The notes beneath the pieces are model-generated. The model had not been told where the DNA came from. It did no database searches and saw only the letters and a list, made by a program, of their open reading frames with translations. 64,000 nucleotides of DNA from Clostridia bacterium (GTDB lineage: Bacteria; Bacillota; Clostridia; UBA1212; DUPL01), in contig JBMNIW010000001.1 of NCBI GenBank assembly GCA_050951325.1, positions 129,229 through 193,228 on the forward strand, read 5' to 3'. The position numbers were made by a program, and so were the translations under genes. This document shows positions 1 through 10,499 of this stretch, one piece after another (position 1 is the stretch's first letter; each line of letters opens with the position of its first letter).

Positions 1-1524
1 TATTTCAATGGCATAATCCCACTGTTCCTGAAAATTGACACCGTAGAGCTTTGCATTCTTTCTCGTATCATACTTCCCTTCCTTGACGGAGTAATGCCTG
101 CCATAGACATTCTCGCCATTCATGGCGGTAAGTCCTCTTTTTGCATTCCAGTTCTGGGCAACAGATACGGTGACCTGTTCAGGCGTTCCATCCGGATTTC
201 TTGCGATTAACTGAGGATATATCGAAATCCAGTTCCAGATTATGTAGTTTTTCTTAATCTCCGGTTGAATCGCTCCGTAAATCAAAGGATTTCCGTTTTC
301 GTCCCTTACCTGCACATTGTCCCACGTATGGCTGTGGTTTGGCGGTCTGAAATTGAAAAACTCCATAATCTCTGCATCAACCAAATCGGTTTGTGGATTC
401 AACTTCCCAGGGTAGCACATAATCAAAGGTTTTCCCTTCCAATAGAACCATAAATCCTTGTACCTTCCCTGAGAATAGATTTCCCTGTATAGTTCTCTTA
501 GTTGTGTTGCCACAAAATCATAGTCAAATATAGGAAGGATAAAGGAAATCTGCGGGGTCTTGACTCCATCCAATCGTGCCTTTGCAAAGACTTCAAGAAG
601 AACAAGAACCTCATCCACAAAGGTTAACTCATTGTTTGTGTTGTCAAAAAAGATGGCATCCACACCTGCATTGGCCAGCATCTCTGCTTGTTTTCTTAAT
701 ACCCATCTGTCATCCGTCCTGTAATATCCGTAAATCGGCTCATTCCAGAAGAAAACTCCTCCTGTTCCCCAATGCTCACTGTCCCAGTCATGAACAATTT
801 CAGGATGTTCCTTCAGTATTTCCGTAATATTTCTCATTCCTTTGGCATGGTTGTGGGTATGCCAGGTATGGAAAAACAATCCCACATATTTGTCATTTCG
901 CACCTTGCCTGAAATTTGCGTTGATGGTACTTCCCTTCCCAAGCCATCCGTCGCCACCCATGTGTCAAACCCGTCGAACAACTCAATGGAATTGTCCGAC
1001 AGTTTGTCAAGACCTTTTGTGTTTATACGCATCTTAAGACTTCCAAAACGCTCGCTAAAATTCTCATACAGCCTTACATTTTCCTTCTCTGGATACATGA
1101 TATTTACATCAAGAAAACCATTACCACCCATCTTCTCCATAACAAACAGATACTCACCTTTTTTAGGCATAACGGAAGATAAATCCCATGTATAGTATGT
1201 ATTCCTGGGAAAAAACTCGTCCCTTTTCTCACAATGGACAGGCTTGCCGTTTACGGTCTTTGCAATATTTTCATCCCATTTATACAGTTTGAACTCAACA
1301 ATGCAATTTCGATTAACAGACGCATTGGCTATAAATATATCAATTTTTGAAAAACTTGAAGTTGCATTGAATTGAACGCACAACCCAGTAAGCCTGGTTT
1401 GGACCACCTTTTCAGGCTCTATGAACAAATCCATATCCTCACCAACTTCCTCAGCATTAAACCCGATAATTGTAAATATCGCACCAACAAGAATAACCGT
1501 TAAAGCAAAACATAACTTTTTCAT
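1..1524 (-). CDS. Membrane-anchored TIM-barrel glycoside-hydrolase-like protein, N-terminal 508 aa (3' end runs off the window start). Paralogue of 37852..40350.
   Basis: Not in the ORF track because it is edge-truncated. The minus frame is open from the ATG at 1524 down to position 1. Translation gives MKKLCFALTVILVGA (signal) ... FHTWHTHNHAKGMRNITEILKEHPEI ... FFWNEPIYGYYRTDDRWVLRKQAEMLANAGVDAIFFDNTNN ..., collinear with the 848-aa protein at 37852..40350. Its ATG overlaps the stop of the upstream gene (ATGA at 1521-1524). Confidence 0.75.
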   Translation of the reverse strand, partial: MKKLCFALTVILVGAIFTIIGFNAEEVGEDMDLFIEPEKVVQTRLTGLCVQFNATSSFSKIDIFIANASVNRNCIVEFKLYKWDENIAKTVNGKPVHCEKRDEFFPRNTYYTWDLSSVMPKKGEYLFVMEKMGGNGFLDVNIMYPEKENVRLYENFSERFGSLKMRINTKGLDKLSDNSIELFDGFDTWVATDGLGREVPSTQISGKVRNDKYVGLFFHTWHTHNHAKGMRNITEILKEHPEIVHDWDSEHWGTGGVFFWNEPIYGYYRTDDRWVLRKQAEMLANAGVDAIFFDNTNNELTFVDEVLVLLEVFAKARLDGVKTPQISFILPIFDYDFVATQLRELYREIYSQGRYKDLWFYWKGKPLIMCYPGKLNPQTDLVDAEIMEFFNFRPPNHSHTWDNVQVRDENGNPLIYGAIQPEIKKNYIIWNWISIYPQLIARNPDGTPEQVTVSVAQNWNAKRGLTAMNGENVYGRHYSVKEGKYDTRKNAKLYGVNFQEQWDYAIEI

Positions 1525-2351
1525 GACTCTTTATCCCGTTTGCTTCTTACAAAGAAAACGCCCACCATCACAACCACTATTACCGCCAGAATAATGAAAA
1601 GAATATACAGGTCGTTTCCTTTTGCATCCTTTTCCTTCCCGGTATTCTCAGTTGGCTGTGGCACAGGAGTTCTGGTATCAAGTCTTGAATAGGCATCCGC
1701 TTCTTCCCTGGTTTTAAAGAAACCAATATACTTGTACGCCATTGTATCCTTGTCGCTGATTGTCCCACTCCTGTATGTACCAATTCTAAGTTGTGTTATG
1801 ACACCTGCATACTCCCAGGCAAGCACGCCATTCATGTCAAGGGTAATCTCTTGCCACTCATTATTCGCAGTAATACTATACAAATATGCATTGCCATCGT
1901 CATAAGCTGGAACATTGGTGCTGATCCAGTGGAATGCGGAAGTGCTGGCAGTATCAGAATTTGCCTTGTACATGACTTTTATGTATTTGTACTTGCTTGT
2001 ATCAACATGATACTTCTCAGGCATGTCAGTCCCTGTATTCGTACCTGGTTTAGCTGCAACTATATACGGATCCATTACCCCGGTCTGGGTATGGGCGGTG
2101 AAGACGCATGCCTTCTCATTCTTGTCATATGAAAAGGAAACCCTGGTAAGATTATATTTCCCTAGAAAACTCAGACCATCATCCCAATATATGTTCCAAT
2201 TGTCTCCTTGTTCTGGATCAGTTGCAACAATCTCATAGTTGGGCTCAATAGAAAAATCAAAAATTATTGCCTCTGATGCCATAACACTAAACGAACCGAT
2301 AAAAGAACACAAAACAACAAAAAACATGGATAAAACTATGAATCGTTTCAT
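1521..2351 (-). CDS. Hypothetical exported protein: signal peptide, an unassigned ~150-aa domain, then a C-terminal TM anchor with a basic tail.
   Basis: N-terminus MKRFIVLSMFFVVLCSFIGSFSVMASEA. C-terminus ILFIILAVIVVVMVGVFFVRSKRDKES. The domain motifs (ACVFTAHTQTG..DPYIVA, KYIKVMYKANSD, QLRIG, YIGFFKTREEADAY) recur in 61217..61930 and in the C-terminal repeats of the sulfatase 55094..58024. Confidence 0.6.
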   Translation of the reverse strand: MKRFIVLSMFFVVLCSFIGSFSVMASEAIIFDFSIEPNYEIVATDPEQGDNWNIYWDDGLSFLGKYNLTRVSFSYDKNEKACVFTAHTQTGVMDPYIVAAKPGTNTGTDMPEKYHVDTSKYKYIKVMYKANSDTASTSAFHWISTNVPAYDDGNAYLYSITANNEWQEITLDMNGVLAWEYAGVITQLRIGTYRSGTISDKDTMAYKYIGFFKTREEADAYSRLDTRTPVPQPTENTGKEKDAKGNDLYILFIILAVIVVVMVGVFFVRSKRDKES

Positions 2352-2356
2352 GAAAC

Positions 2357-3247
2357 CTACCTCTCAAAATCAACATGGCAATTTATAAAAAGATTGGCGA
2401 TATCCTTCATTATCTCCTCGCTTGGTTCTTTCAAATCAGACAAGGAATAATCCTCACACAAAGCAAAATACTTGGAAATTCCCAAATTGTGATATGGCAG
2501 CAAAGAAACCTTCTCAACACCTGTTACACCAAGCATTTTTTCCACTTCCTTAATTACATCGACCCTGTCATTAATTCCCGGTATGATTGGTATCCTTACC
2601 ACCACATCGCATCCCGACTGTACAAGCTTATGCAAATTGCTGCATACAAGCTCATAATCTCCCTTAAGCATATCATACACTTCATTGTTGCCTTTTATGT
2701 CGAAATAAAAGGTGTTGGTAAAGGGAATCACCTTCTCAAAAAGAGAAAACGGCACATTACCAGCCGTATCTATAATCACATGAATATTATTTTTACTTAA
2801 CTTTTCTGCCAATGCGGATACAAAAGACGCCTGAAGCAAAGGCTCTCCACCCGATATTGTAACTCCACCACCGGACTCCTGCATGTATTCATAATCCTTG
2901 TAGAGAGTATCAAACACTTCATCCACGGTCATGTATCTGCCTGAAAGTTTCAAAGCTTTTGTTGTACATGTCTTTTCACACATGCCACAAAAGTCACACT
3001 TGTCAACTTCCACAACATGTTCACCATCCTTAATAGAGTGAACACCTCTTGTGCAGACAATTTCACAAAGCCTACATTTTGCACATAGATTTTTATGAAA
3101 CATCAGCCTTGGCTTTTGGGATATGGTCTCGGGATTATGACACCAGGGGCACAAAAGATTGCACCCCTGCATAAACACAGTTGTCCTTATGCCCGGACCG
3201 TCTCCTAATGAAAAATGCTGTATATTGCTTATCAAACCCTTATCCAT
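2357..3247 (-). CDS. Glycyl-radical-enzyme activating enzyme (radical SAM, PflA-like, with an extra ferredoxin-like Cys cluster).
   Basis: GDGPGIRTTVFMQGCNLLCPWCHN (CxxxCxxC) plus a second cluster CAKCRLCEIVC..CDFCGMCEKTC. Start overlaps the GRE stop (3240-3247). Confidence 0.9.
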   Translation of the reverse strand: MDKGLISNIQHFSLGDGPGIRTTVFMQGCNLLCPWCHNPETISQKPRLMFHKNLCAKCRLCEIVCTRGVHSIKDGEHVVEVDKCDFCGMCEKTCTTKALKLSGRYMTVDEVFDTLYKDYEYMQESGGGVTISGGEPLLQASFVSALAEKLSKNNIHVIIDTAGNVPFSLFEKVIPFTNTFYFDIKGNNEVYDMLKGDYELVCSNLHKLVQSGCDVVVRIPIIPGINDRVDVIKEVEKMLGVTGVEKVSLLPYHNLGISKYFALCEDYSLSDLKEPSEEIMKDIANLFINCHVDFER

Positions 3248-10378: not shown

Positions 10379-10407
10379 ATTATAATACGTCCTGACAGGT
10401 TTTTCAA
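10379..10407 (-). promoter_or_regulatory. Candidate sigma-A promoter for the 8-gene minus-strand operon.
   Basis: Minus-strand reading TTGAAA - 17 nt - TATAAT, about 30 nt upstream of the GTG at 10344. Confidence 0.3.
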
Positions 10408-10439
10408 TCAATTCGGTCTGCAAGCACATATAAATAAAG

Positions 10440-10469
10440 TTGCATAACCTGTATTCCTAATGTTATCAT
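10440..10469 (+). promoter_or_regulatory. Candidate promoter of the Fnr-like regulator gene.
   Basis: TTGCAT - 17/18 nt - TTATCAT, about 30 nt upstream of GGAGGGATAAAATG. Confidence 0.35.
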
Positions 10470-10499
10470 ATCTTTATACATTGCTTATGGAGGGATAAA

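Follow-up and report, generated by a model that had tools for sequence, protein, structure and literature searches.

A probable eliminate-then-reduce cassette of glycyl radical enzyme, activase and zinc-dependent dehydrogenase within a surface-protein gene block of a Clostridia bacterium

We analysed a stretch of 64,000 nucleotides (nt) from a Clostridia bacterium (assembly GCA_050951325.1, contig JBMNIW010000001.1, positions 129,229 to 193,228 of the forward strand), hereafter the window, to which all coordinates refer unless another locus is named. Close to its start lie adjacent genes for a glycyl radical enzyme (GRE), its activase and a zinc-dependent alcohol dehydrogenase (ADH). We consider it fairly probable that these form a self-contained cassette of the eliminase type, which would eliminate and then reduce, that its embedding in an operon of surface-protein genes is specific to this lineage, and that a link to glycans is plausible.

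New GRE functions have repeatedly explained important anaerobic conversions in microbiomes of the gut and the environment, those concerning trimethylamine, H2S, p-cresol, hydroxyproline and the use of anhydro-sugars among them. The superfamily review of June 2026 catalogues the characterised PFL-like GREs and describes entire clades without assigned function (PMC13450708); none of the catalogued enzymes is close to the GRE of the window.

Results

Sequence features of the GRE and its activase

The GRE gene (3240-5399, minus strand; 5408 with a GTG start) encodes, from its ATG start, a protein of 719 amino acids (aa) identical to database protein P0001, which matches PF02901 (PFL-like, E 3.1e-139) and PF01228 (Gly_radical, E 1.5e-25). 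It carries the glycine motif RVSGFSA (within VVRVSGFSAYY) and the Cys loop GCIE, and its residues C363, E365 and G696 (P0001 numbering) are invariant in 26 family members. The gene at 2357-3247 (minus strand) encodes a radical S-adenosylmethionine (SAM) GRE activase of 296 aa, with Radical_SAM, Fer4_12 and Fer4 domains, the cluster motif CNLLCPWC and a ferredoxin-like insert; it scores 285.6 bits against TIGR02494, for a cut-off of 174.35. These profile matches and motifs bear out the initial annotation of the sequence, which had described a PFL2-like GRE with a C-x-E loop and an activase of its own.

Against the curated NCBIfam models, the GRE stays under every subfamily or equivalog cut-off. 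Specifically, it reaches 457.5 of the 678.2 bits required for TIGR01774 (PFL2-3), 420 of 1100 for HypD, 399 of 1050 for CutC, 361 and 354 of 1000 for HpfG and HpsG, and 329 of 1109 for PflD. The best solved full-length relative is the glycerol dehydratase (GD) 1r8w, with 373 bits and 222 identities over 613 aligned residues; no solved GRE exceeds 36% identity to the window enzyme. Structures of CutC, propanediol dehydratase and HypD come next, at 338-362 bits, the propanediol dehydratase structures 5i2a and 9rco reaching only 338-346 bits. The entry 9rco bears only the label 'glycyl radical protein'; it and the entries up to 9rcr proved to be a Raoultella propanediol dehydratase.

A pairwise sequence alignment with GD pairs residues H164, C433, E435, D447 and G763 of the latter with identical residues of the window GRE, and all five are invariant in the 26 members; the equivalence of H105 and D377 with GD H164 and D447 comes from this alignment only. 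The same comparison gives a different picture for the positions H281, S282, Y339 and Y640, which we take from the 1R9D literature to be the glycerol contacts of GD. H281 is replaced by Tyr, S282 and Y640 by Ala, and Y339 falls in a gap, in a GGDDVVN region whose D268 and N271 are invariant. The pocket has thus lost two tyrosines and gained invariant polar and acidic residues. Both comparisons had been proposed as checks together with the initial annotation, and both set the enzyme apart, under all subfamily cut-offs in the one and with the GD contacts not kept in the other.

When the core from beta1 to the Cys loop was used as a query, the closest solved enzyme was CutC, not GD, and HypD was not among the top five alignments obtained with this fragment. 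Asp268 immediately precedes the position occupied by F395 in CutC and by Y339 in GD. HypD has an essential, amine-linked Asp339-Phe340 pair (PMC7077986), and Asp268 may be the equivalent of its Asp339.

No paper on this clade of ~719-aa GREs emerged from full-text searches of the literature. Judged by its motifs and alignments, the GRE is an eliminase-type, PFL2-like enzyme of an uncharacterised clade, and it is predicted to act on something other than glycerol, propanediol, choline or hydroxyproline in the manner in which their known enzymes bind them.

These data also bear on the most conventional explanation, an ordinary B12-independent glycerol or 1,2-propanediol dehydratase working with a propanediol/propanol dehydrogenase, which we regard as improbable. 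GD being the best full-length solved match and the retention of the catalytic His, Cys, Glu and Asp speak for it, and the GDSL and lipase genes that neighbour some orthologous loci could supply glycerol. The shortfall against TIGR01774, the 36% identity to GD, the loss of its four pocket residues and an N-terminus about 70 residues shorter speak against it, as does the lack of a DhaT-type iron-dependent ADH (Fe-ADH), of a bacterial microcompartment (BMC) shell gene and of an aldehyde dehydrogenase gene. As initially annotated, shell and aldehyde dehydrogenase genes are missing: Pfam searches found none within 10 kb on either side in the four contigs that carry the locus (L001-L004, see below).

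Distribution and partners of the cassette

The third member of the cassette (5405-6490, minus strand) is a zinc-dependent medium-chain dehydrogenase/reductase (MDR) of 361 aa with ADH_N and ADH_zinc_N domains. It is of the two-zinc type, lies under all NCBIfam equivalog cut-offs (the best being Tdh, 160 against 458 bits) and has 1vj0 as its best match in the PDB.

The protein database holds a large family of ~719-aa GREs, all generically named. With clade-specific peptide patterns, relatives were retrieved from 322 species-representative genomes and 80 loci (numbered with the prefix L) were examined by clustering the flanking open reading frames (ORFs) and by tblastn; partner counts were made on the 48 loci whose flanks reach 3 kb or more on each side. 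The carriers are uncultured Clostridia of anaerobic digesters and of the guts of ruminants, chickens and humans, and a cultured one, Hydrogeniiclostridium mannosilyticum ASD2818, whose locus (L050) has the order AraC-GRE-activase-ADH. In 40 of the 48 loci the GRE has an ADH orthologue no more than 4 kb away, always downstream and co-directional, and in 26 it has a co-directional activase within the same distance. A divergent AraC-family gene, supported by Pfam, was found in 33 loci. What is conserved among the 80 loci is a unit of AraC, GRE, activase and Zn-ADH. The initial annotation had called the GRE module 'hard-wired' into a glycan operon; this does not hold beyond the window organism. 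It had also named a placement of all orthologues in canonical propanediol or choline loci, with all substrate contacts shared, as an outcome that would make the arrangement a chance juxtaposition; in the 80 loci surveyed, the orthologues do not sit in such loci.

The window cassette departs from the usual layout on two counts, in that it has no AraC regulator of the usual kind and in that its order, ADH-GRE-activase, is common only to its closest relatives, L005 and L085. At 66% GRE identity (L086 and L087), no further partner accompanies the GRE-activase-ADH cassette, which has an IS66 element on one side and ribosomal protein genes on the other; in L086, IS66-family transposase genes (2085-3413 of that locus) are directly upstream of it. 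This adjacency suggests that the cassette is mobile.

Other partners recur occasionally at the orthologous loci. In 12 loci a GDSL hydrolase gene separates activase and ADH, in 6 the ADH is followed by an Eis-type GNAT gene, and a secreted lipase and GH10 are encoded at 5 and 4 loci, respectively. Two metagenome-assembled genomes encode the ADH as a fusion with an AAC(3)-type N-acetyltransferase domain (L064, 12770-14764; L065, 12872-14764; PF02522, 175.6 bits). The label 'sugar-binding lipoprotein', tried for one recurrent cluster of neighbours, was dropped because it lacked Pfam support.

The acetyltransferases lend some colour to a reading in which the GRE acts on an amine-bearing alcohol (for instance an amino-alcohol, an amino-diol or a derivative of an amino-sugar), as a CutC-like C-N lyase or a HypD-like dehydratase, with the carbonyl product then reduced by the ADH and the amine, in many species, processed by an N-acetyltransferase. 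Besides the fusions and the six GNAT genes, it draws on the CutC-like core, on the fact that, of the NCBIfam equivalog models, those of the HypD pair score best with GRE and activase alike, and on the invariant Asp268 near the presumed HypD Asp339-Phe340 position. The window locus itself has no acetyltransferase, and only about 10% of the loci do; the GRE keeps the GD-type His and Asp where CutC differs; HypD was missing from the five best alignments to the core, and the scores are far under the equivalog cut-offs. All together, we hold this reading to be rather doubtful. The pocket changes, the two unrelated N-acetyltransferase families, the CutC-like core, the HypD models and Asp268 weakly favour, over glycerol or propanediol, a substrate that is larger or bears an amine.

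Architecture of the gene block

Gene order was read from the ORF listing of the window. Eight consecutive ORFs run on the minus strand from 10344 to 1, with no gap larger than 48 nt, and encode a 375-aa surface protein (9217-10344), a 753-aa lipoprotein (6907-9168), a YjbQ/UPF0047 protein (6506-6895), the ADH, the GRE, the activase, a 276-aa protein of unassigned family (1521-2351) and an 815-aa surface protein, of which the first 508 codons are present (1-1524), the gene running off the window start. The succession and the tight spacing are those given in the initial annotation. The YjbQ protein is of 129 aa, or 134 aa if read from a TTG at 6910, and is clearly assigned (PF01894, E 4e-46; TIGR00149, 160 bits against a cut-off of 68).

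The 48-nt gap (9169-9216) separates the 375-aa and 753-aa genes. Gaps of 15 nt between YjbQ and ADH and of 5 nt (2352-2356) between the activase and 276-aa genes were found, together with an 8-nt overlap of GRE and activase (3240-3247) and an ATGA overlap of the 276-aa and 815-aa genes (1521-1524). Two junctions depend on the start codon chosen: the 753-aa and YjbQ genes overlap by 4 nt (6907-6910) with the TTG start and are 11 nt apart with an ATG start, and the ADH and GRE genes overlap by 4 nt (5405-5408) with the GTG start and are 5 nt apart with an ATG start. Gene callers on identical contigs pick the ATG in both cases, and an exact-sequence lookup of the 722-aa, GTG-start GRE gave no match. 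The overlaps at 1521-1524 and 3240-3247 that had been annotated are thus real, and those at 5405-5408 and 6907-6910 exist only with the alternative starts.

A consensus scan of positions 1-12000 returned 10 terminator-like hairpins, for 8.4 expected, all within coding sequence; none falls in any junction of the block, as had been noted from the sequence. The best promoter-like site for the block, TTGAAA-17-TATAAT (10407-10379, minus strand), is a consensus match only, at 11 of 12 positions. The site shortly precedes the GTG start at 10344 and falls inside the extension of the 375-aa gene whose longest ORF reaches 10407.

The same arrangement is present in four independent metagenome contigs (L001-L004) with 99.6-99.9% identity. 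On the identical contigs, the block extends past the window start through the remainder of the 815-aa gene to a gene for a PilZ-domain protein (PF07238, 28.3 bits against a cut-off of 22.5), beyond which lies a convergent AraC gene. The block first delimited as 10344 to 1 is consequently real, though its end at position 1 is not. In conclusion, the junctions fit one transcript, and the nine genes, PilZ included, are probably co-transcribed.

Surface proteins encoded around the cassette

All four surface proteins of the block have N-terminal signal sequences. The 753-aa protein carries an LLTSC lipobox, and a hydrophobic helix that would serve as a transmembrane (TM) anchor is found at the C-terminus of the 375-aa, 276-aa and 815-aa proteins. 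Their surface location agrees with the extracytoplasmic, glycoside hydrolase (GH)-like proteins initially annotated, and the structural comparisons extend this agreement to predicted GH-like folds of the 815-aa and 753-aa proteins.

The 815-aa protein has no Pfam match and no useful sequence match in the PDB; a few of its relatives carry PF16317. In fold searches it passes as GH99-like, with a GH99/GH71-like TIM barrel that stands between two beta-sandwiches, a signal/anchor at the N-terminus and a TM helix at the C-terminus. In its family N519, E520 and W521 are conserved, and the third residue after the Glu is Ala or Gly, giving the motif NEWVAG. Compared with what we take to be the GH99 catalytic motif, the second catalytic Glu appears to be missing.

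The 753-aa protein matches F5_F8_type_C (PF00754) with 103.9 bits over two stretches and falls just short of GH42 (20.2 bits against a cut-off of 21); a PDB sequence search matched its discoidin domains only. In an alignment-based AlphaFold model (pLDDT 89.8), the protein consists of a TIM barrel spanning about residues 43-320, a beta-sandwich and two CBM32 domains. Foldseek pairs the barrel with GH35 4iug, GH39 PslG 9g17 and beta-galactosidase 8q2h, and also with GH42 chains; the C-terminal domains are paired with the CBM32 pairs 7jnf and 7jnd and with neuropilin b-domains. Residues D137-E138-P139 are nearly invariant in the family at the end of a strand, and strand 263-266 has no conserved acidic residue. 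The models therefore support 'GH-like' as a description of the fold of both proteins; the canonical catalytic pairs are only partly evident, and both proteins lie under the sequence-family thresholds.

For the 375-aa protein, Pfam searches at E up to 10 gave only sub-threshold SBBP and NHL hints (E 0.24-0.42) and the PDB no useful match, so that the 'beta-propeller' of the initial annotation is tentative at best. The 276-aa protein has no match in Pfam, NCBIfam or the PDB; its Pfam hits at E up to 10 are at noise level.

Three of the four families have paralogues in the same window, namely of the 815-aa protein at 37852-40206 (50% identity), of the 753-aa protein at 30541-32145 (32%) and, weakly, of the 276-aa protein at 61226-61594 (25%), and are thus expanded in this genome. 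In addition, the stretches 18074-23437 and 55094-59587 encode two sulfatases (976 and 511 aa), a melibiase-like protein and a DUF2961 protein that matches Laminin_G_3 in two stretches, genes which indicate that the organism is specialised in complex, possibly sulfated, glycans. Considering the paralogues and these genes, GH-like genes are dense in the genome.

Two further genes touch on the surface proteins. A dCache-HAMP-PAS-GGDEF-HD-GYP sensor is encoded at 13359-16031, 3 kb from the block, and the PilZ gene (L002, 16345-16941) closes the block; together they hint at a control of the surface proteins by cyclic di-GMP.

Relation between the cassette and glycan-related genes

The arrangement of the block invites the interpretation that surface GH-like enzymes free a glycan-derived diol, polyol or deoxy-sugar, which the GRE dehydrates and the ADH reduces, in a route from glycan to alcohol. 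The locus L085 is the most direct comparison. This contig (ERZ2648087 NODE_40) encodes, over 2321-13052, a SASA esterase, a 350-aa protein, an 812-aa member of the 815-aa family (39% identity), a 338-aa protein, AraC, ADH, GRE and activase, with a GRE 83% identical to that of the window. Because it comes from the same assembly as a contig of the window organism, with matching GC content and coverage and a tetranucleotide correlation of r = 0.976, L085 is probably a second copy of the cassette in the same genome. Its layout differs from that of the window, the 815-family gene being upstream and AraC standing between this gene and the cassette, and two other exported proteins are encoded beside it.

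Several observations agree with the glycan route: the operon-like, overlapping or nearly abutting junctions on both sides of the cassette, the predicted GH99/GH71-like and GH-A-like folds with two CBM32 domains, the 815-family gene and SASA esterase beside the apparent second cassette, 815-family genes no farther than 10 kb from the GRE in three distant loci (L048, L051 and L067), the GH10, GDSL esterase and lipase genes recurring near orthologous cassettes, and a pocket which, with two tyrosines lost and invariant polar residues, fits a larger polar substrate. The comparative data point the other way. Outside this organism, no surface family of the block occurs at more than 3 of the 80 loci: a 753-like barrel was found in 2 (22% identity), 815-family genes in the three just mentioned, and the 375-aa, 276-aa, YjbQ, PilZ and Fnr-like genes in none. 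The cassette stands alone elsewhere, and homologues of the 753-aa protein in other genomes are not adjacent to GREs, the 815-family genes there likewise having no GRE nearby. Moreover, no transporter, kinase or isomerase gene is found in the block, enzymes of the GH99/GH71 type yield ordinary sugars and not diols, and the second GH99 Glu is apparently missing. The full glycan-to-alcohol route thus strikes us as unlikely, if not remotely so.

The closest outside homologue of the 753-aa protein (61%), at L091 (1709-8260), is divergently paired with an 815-family gene (37%) and accompanied by a GH20 hexosaminidase, and no GRE was found on that contig. This suggests that the 753 and 815 families form a pair, and that in the window organism the cassette came to lie between the two by insertion.

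Such an insertion leads to the opposite view, in which a mobile ADH-GRE-activase cassette landed in one of the many surface-protein operons of this genome by chance, or for co-expression only, with no channelling of substrate. The lineage-specific arrangement, the IS66 element beside the cassette of L086, the gene order rearranged with respect to 40 of 40 other loci, and the density of surface paralogues and of other CAZyme-like and sulfatase genes in the window all fit it, as does a population (L004) with a frameshifted 815-aa gene and an intact cassette. The tight reading-frame junctions on both sides of the cassette, and the 815-family adjacency arranged separately in L085 and three distant species, fit it less well. 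We regard this view as a serious possibility, somewhat short of probable.

The frameshift in L004 is a 1-nt deletion at about position 15510, at an invariant S-R-D motif of the 815-aa gene; it may reflect a pseudogene or an assembly error.

Setting the junctions, L085 and the three distant 815-family loci against the lineage-specific arrangement, the dense paralogues, the L004 frameshift and the missing transporter, kinase and isomerase, a true metabolic coupling of the cassette with surface glycan processing is plausible, with the balance leaning against it. Chance adjacency is not negligible, because the surface families have extra paralogues in the same window. Therefore, we treat the lineage-specific embedding in a surface GH-like operon as a lead and not as evidence of a dedicated glycan-to-alcohol pathway; a link to glycans is possible.

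The divergent regulator and an iron-sulfur repair gene

Divergent from the block, the gene at 10500-11216 (plus strand) encodes a Crp/Fnr-family regulator of 238 aa with cNMP_binding (PF00027, 85 bits) and HTH_Crp_2 (PF13545, 61 bits) domains. The cysteines of its N-terminal CSYCNHTSC (residues 7-15), Cys7, Cys10 and Cys15, are joined by Cys112, so that both the family and the cluster initially annotated were recovered; the protein stays under the Fnr subfamily cut-off, with 93 against 228 bits.

In the 155-nt divergent region (10345-10499), we found neither TTGAT-N4-ATCAA with up to 2 mismatches nor GTGA-N6-TCAC with up to 1 mismatch. The window holds two perfect matches to the latter, one at 19304, within the ORF 18074-21343, and an intergenic one at 11335-11348 (with its flanks, GGTGA-N6-TCACA). 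The intergenic box precedes a TAGAAT hexamer by about 22 nt, a class-II-like distance, and the start of a hemerythrin-domain gene by about 60 nt.

The hemerythrin-domain gene (11408-11878, plus strand; PF01814, 47.9 bits) scores 103.5 bits against TIGR03652 over profile positions 62-215, and its product resembles only the C-terminal half of the RIC/YtfE/ScdA iron-sulfur repair protein. A separate DUF1858 gene lies downstream of it in L001-L004 (L001, 3296-3520). The RIC protein thus appears to be split and permuted, with its usual N-terminal DUF1858/ScdA_N domain encoded separately downstream. Since a perfect box precedes the RIC gene and none is present in the promoter region of the block, the Crp/Fnr protein most plausibly controls the RIC gene; its control of the GRE block is conceivable but without support.

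Elsewhere in the window, GC content falls to 0.30 at 28001-30000, compared with about 0.39 overall, over a stretch spanning a 485-aa ORF without Pfam match (28509-29966). Scans of the whole window for Rfam families, at gathering thresholds, and for tRNAs gave no matches.

Discussion

The data presented here depict a GRE-activase-ADH cassette for which elimination followed by reduction is the chemistry we favour. The roles of the catalytic residues of GD in hydrogen abstraction, hydroxyl deprotonation and leaving-group protonation, as well as the definition of the CxE motif, are given in PMC13450708. By analogy, the activase would install the radical on Gly696, and the Cys363 thiyl radical would take a hydrogen atom from a hydroxyl-bearing carbon of the substrate. 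Glu365 would deprotonate the hydroxyl, His105 and Asp377 would help a vicinal leaving group (a hydroxyl, possibly an amine) to depart, and the ADH would reduce the resulting aldehyde or ketone. The net outcome would be a deoxygenation consuming NAD(P)H, like that of GD with 1,3-propanediol dehydrogenase (DhaT) or HpfG with HpfD. The AprD4/AprD3 deoxygenation pair of aminoglycoside biosynthesis offers a further resemblance.

Several points weigh against this proposal. The chemistry assigned to the GRE rests on motif conservation, the pocket positions derive from a pairwise alignment and from the GD residues taken to line the pocket, and co-transcription is read from the junctions. About 46% of the loci with enough flank have no adjacent activase, and the ADH could act before the GRE. 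Furthermore, because GRE isomerases, C-N lyases and C-S lyases also keep the CxE Glu and the His, 'dehydratase' is not the sole reading of the enzyme.

A bolder version of the eliminate-then-reduce proposal can be formulated, in which the ~719-aa clade performs a novel radical 1,2-elimination on a larger polar, possibly amine-bearing, carbohydrate-derived substrate and achieves deoxygenation with the Zn-ADH, coupled directly, in this organism, to the depolymerisation of a glycan at the surface by the GH99/GH71-like and GH-A-like/CBM32 enzymes. This version is speculative and, taken as a whole, we would bet against it; if true, the reaction would be new for glycyl radical enzymes, a net anaerobic deoxygenation.

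What deserves most attention is the GRE-ADH cassette with its uncharacterised clade; both GH-like surface families are unstudied as well. The clade is a well-defined target, present in more than 300 species-level genomes, with a faithful ADH partner, a recurrent AraC gene and a cultured carrier, and with a pocket that differs from that of every characterised enzyme. The arrangement in the window, the acetyltransferase fusions and the esterase partners are leads to the substrate.

Comparison with known systems

Among the surface proteins, the conserved NEW motif brings the 815-aa family near the GH99 endo-alpha-1,2-mannosidases and GH71 alpha-1,3-glucanases, from which the protein differs in having no Pfam match, no evident second Glu and a membrane anchor. 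The 753-aa protein recalls clan GH-A enzymes with CBM32 domains, given a barrel that matches GH35, GH39 and GH42, a conserved DEP and two clear CBM32; it differs in its sub-threshold GH42 score, in a beta7 nucleophile Glu that is not evident and in its lipid anchor.

As for the GRE, the only characterised members of the superfamily acting on carbohydrate derivatives are the isomerases YbiW and PflD, which share the CxE motif with it. They act on anhydro-sugar phosphates in 'anhydroglycolysis' (PMC13450708), so that the notion of GREs having no link to sugars is outdated. Both are more distant from the window GRE (286-290 bits, compared with 373 for GD), and they work on sugar phosphates in contexts of phosphotransferase systems and aldolases, both absent at the window locus.

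CutC and HypD are closer in some respects, namely the core nearest to CutC, the HypD pair as best models and an invariant Asp at the presumed HypD Asp339 position. The window scores are about 40% of the equivalog cut-offs, the locus has no cut or BMC genes and no pyrroline-5-carboxylate (P5C) reductase gene, and the GRE has the GD-type Asp where CutC has Thr502.

HpfG and HpfD are described as a dehydrate-then-reduce pair (PMC11489063) made of a GRE dihydroxypropanesulfonate dehydratase and a 3-sulfopropionaldehyde reductase. The parallel with the window cassette would consist of a GRE dehydratase with a dedicated reductase, an alcohol as end product of the aldehyde and no BMC shell genes; the window GRE reaches 361 of 1000 bits for this subfamily, and its reductase comes from another family.

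Finally, the GD system of Clostridium butyricum (DhaB1/DhaB2, 1R8W) provides the nearest overall counterpart, with the GRE fold, the Gly motif, the CxE loop, the equivalents of His164, Asp447 and Glu435, an overlapping gene for the cognate activase, and a dehydration whose product is then reduced with NAD(P)H, all without a microcompartment. The window GRE differs from it at 36% identity, with a score under the TIGR01774 cut-off, replaced pocket residues and an N-terminus shorter by about 70 residues; its partner is a Zn-MDR and not an Fe-ADH, and the usual regulator of its clade is of the AraC family.

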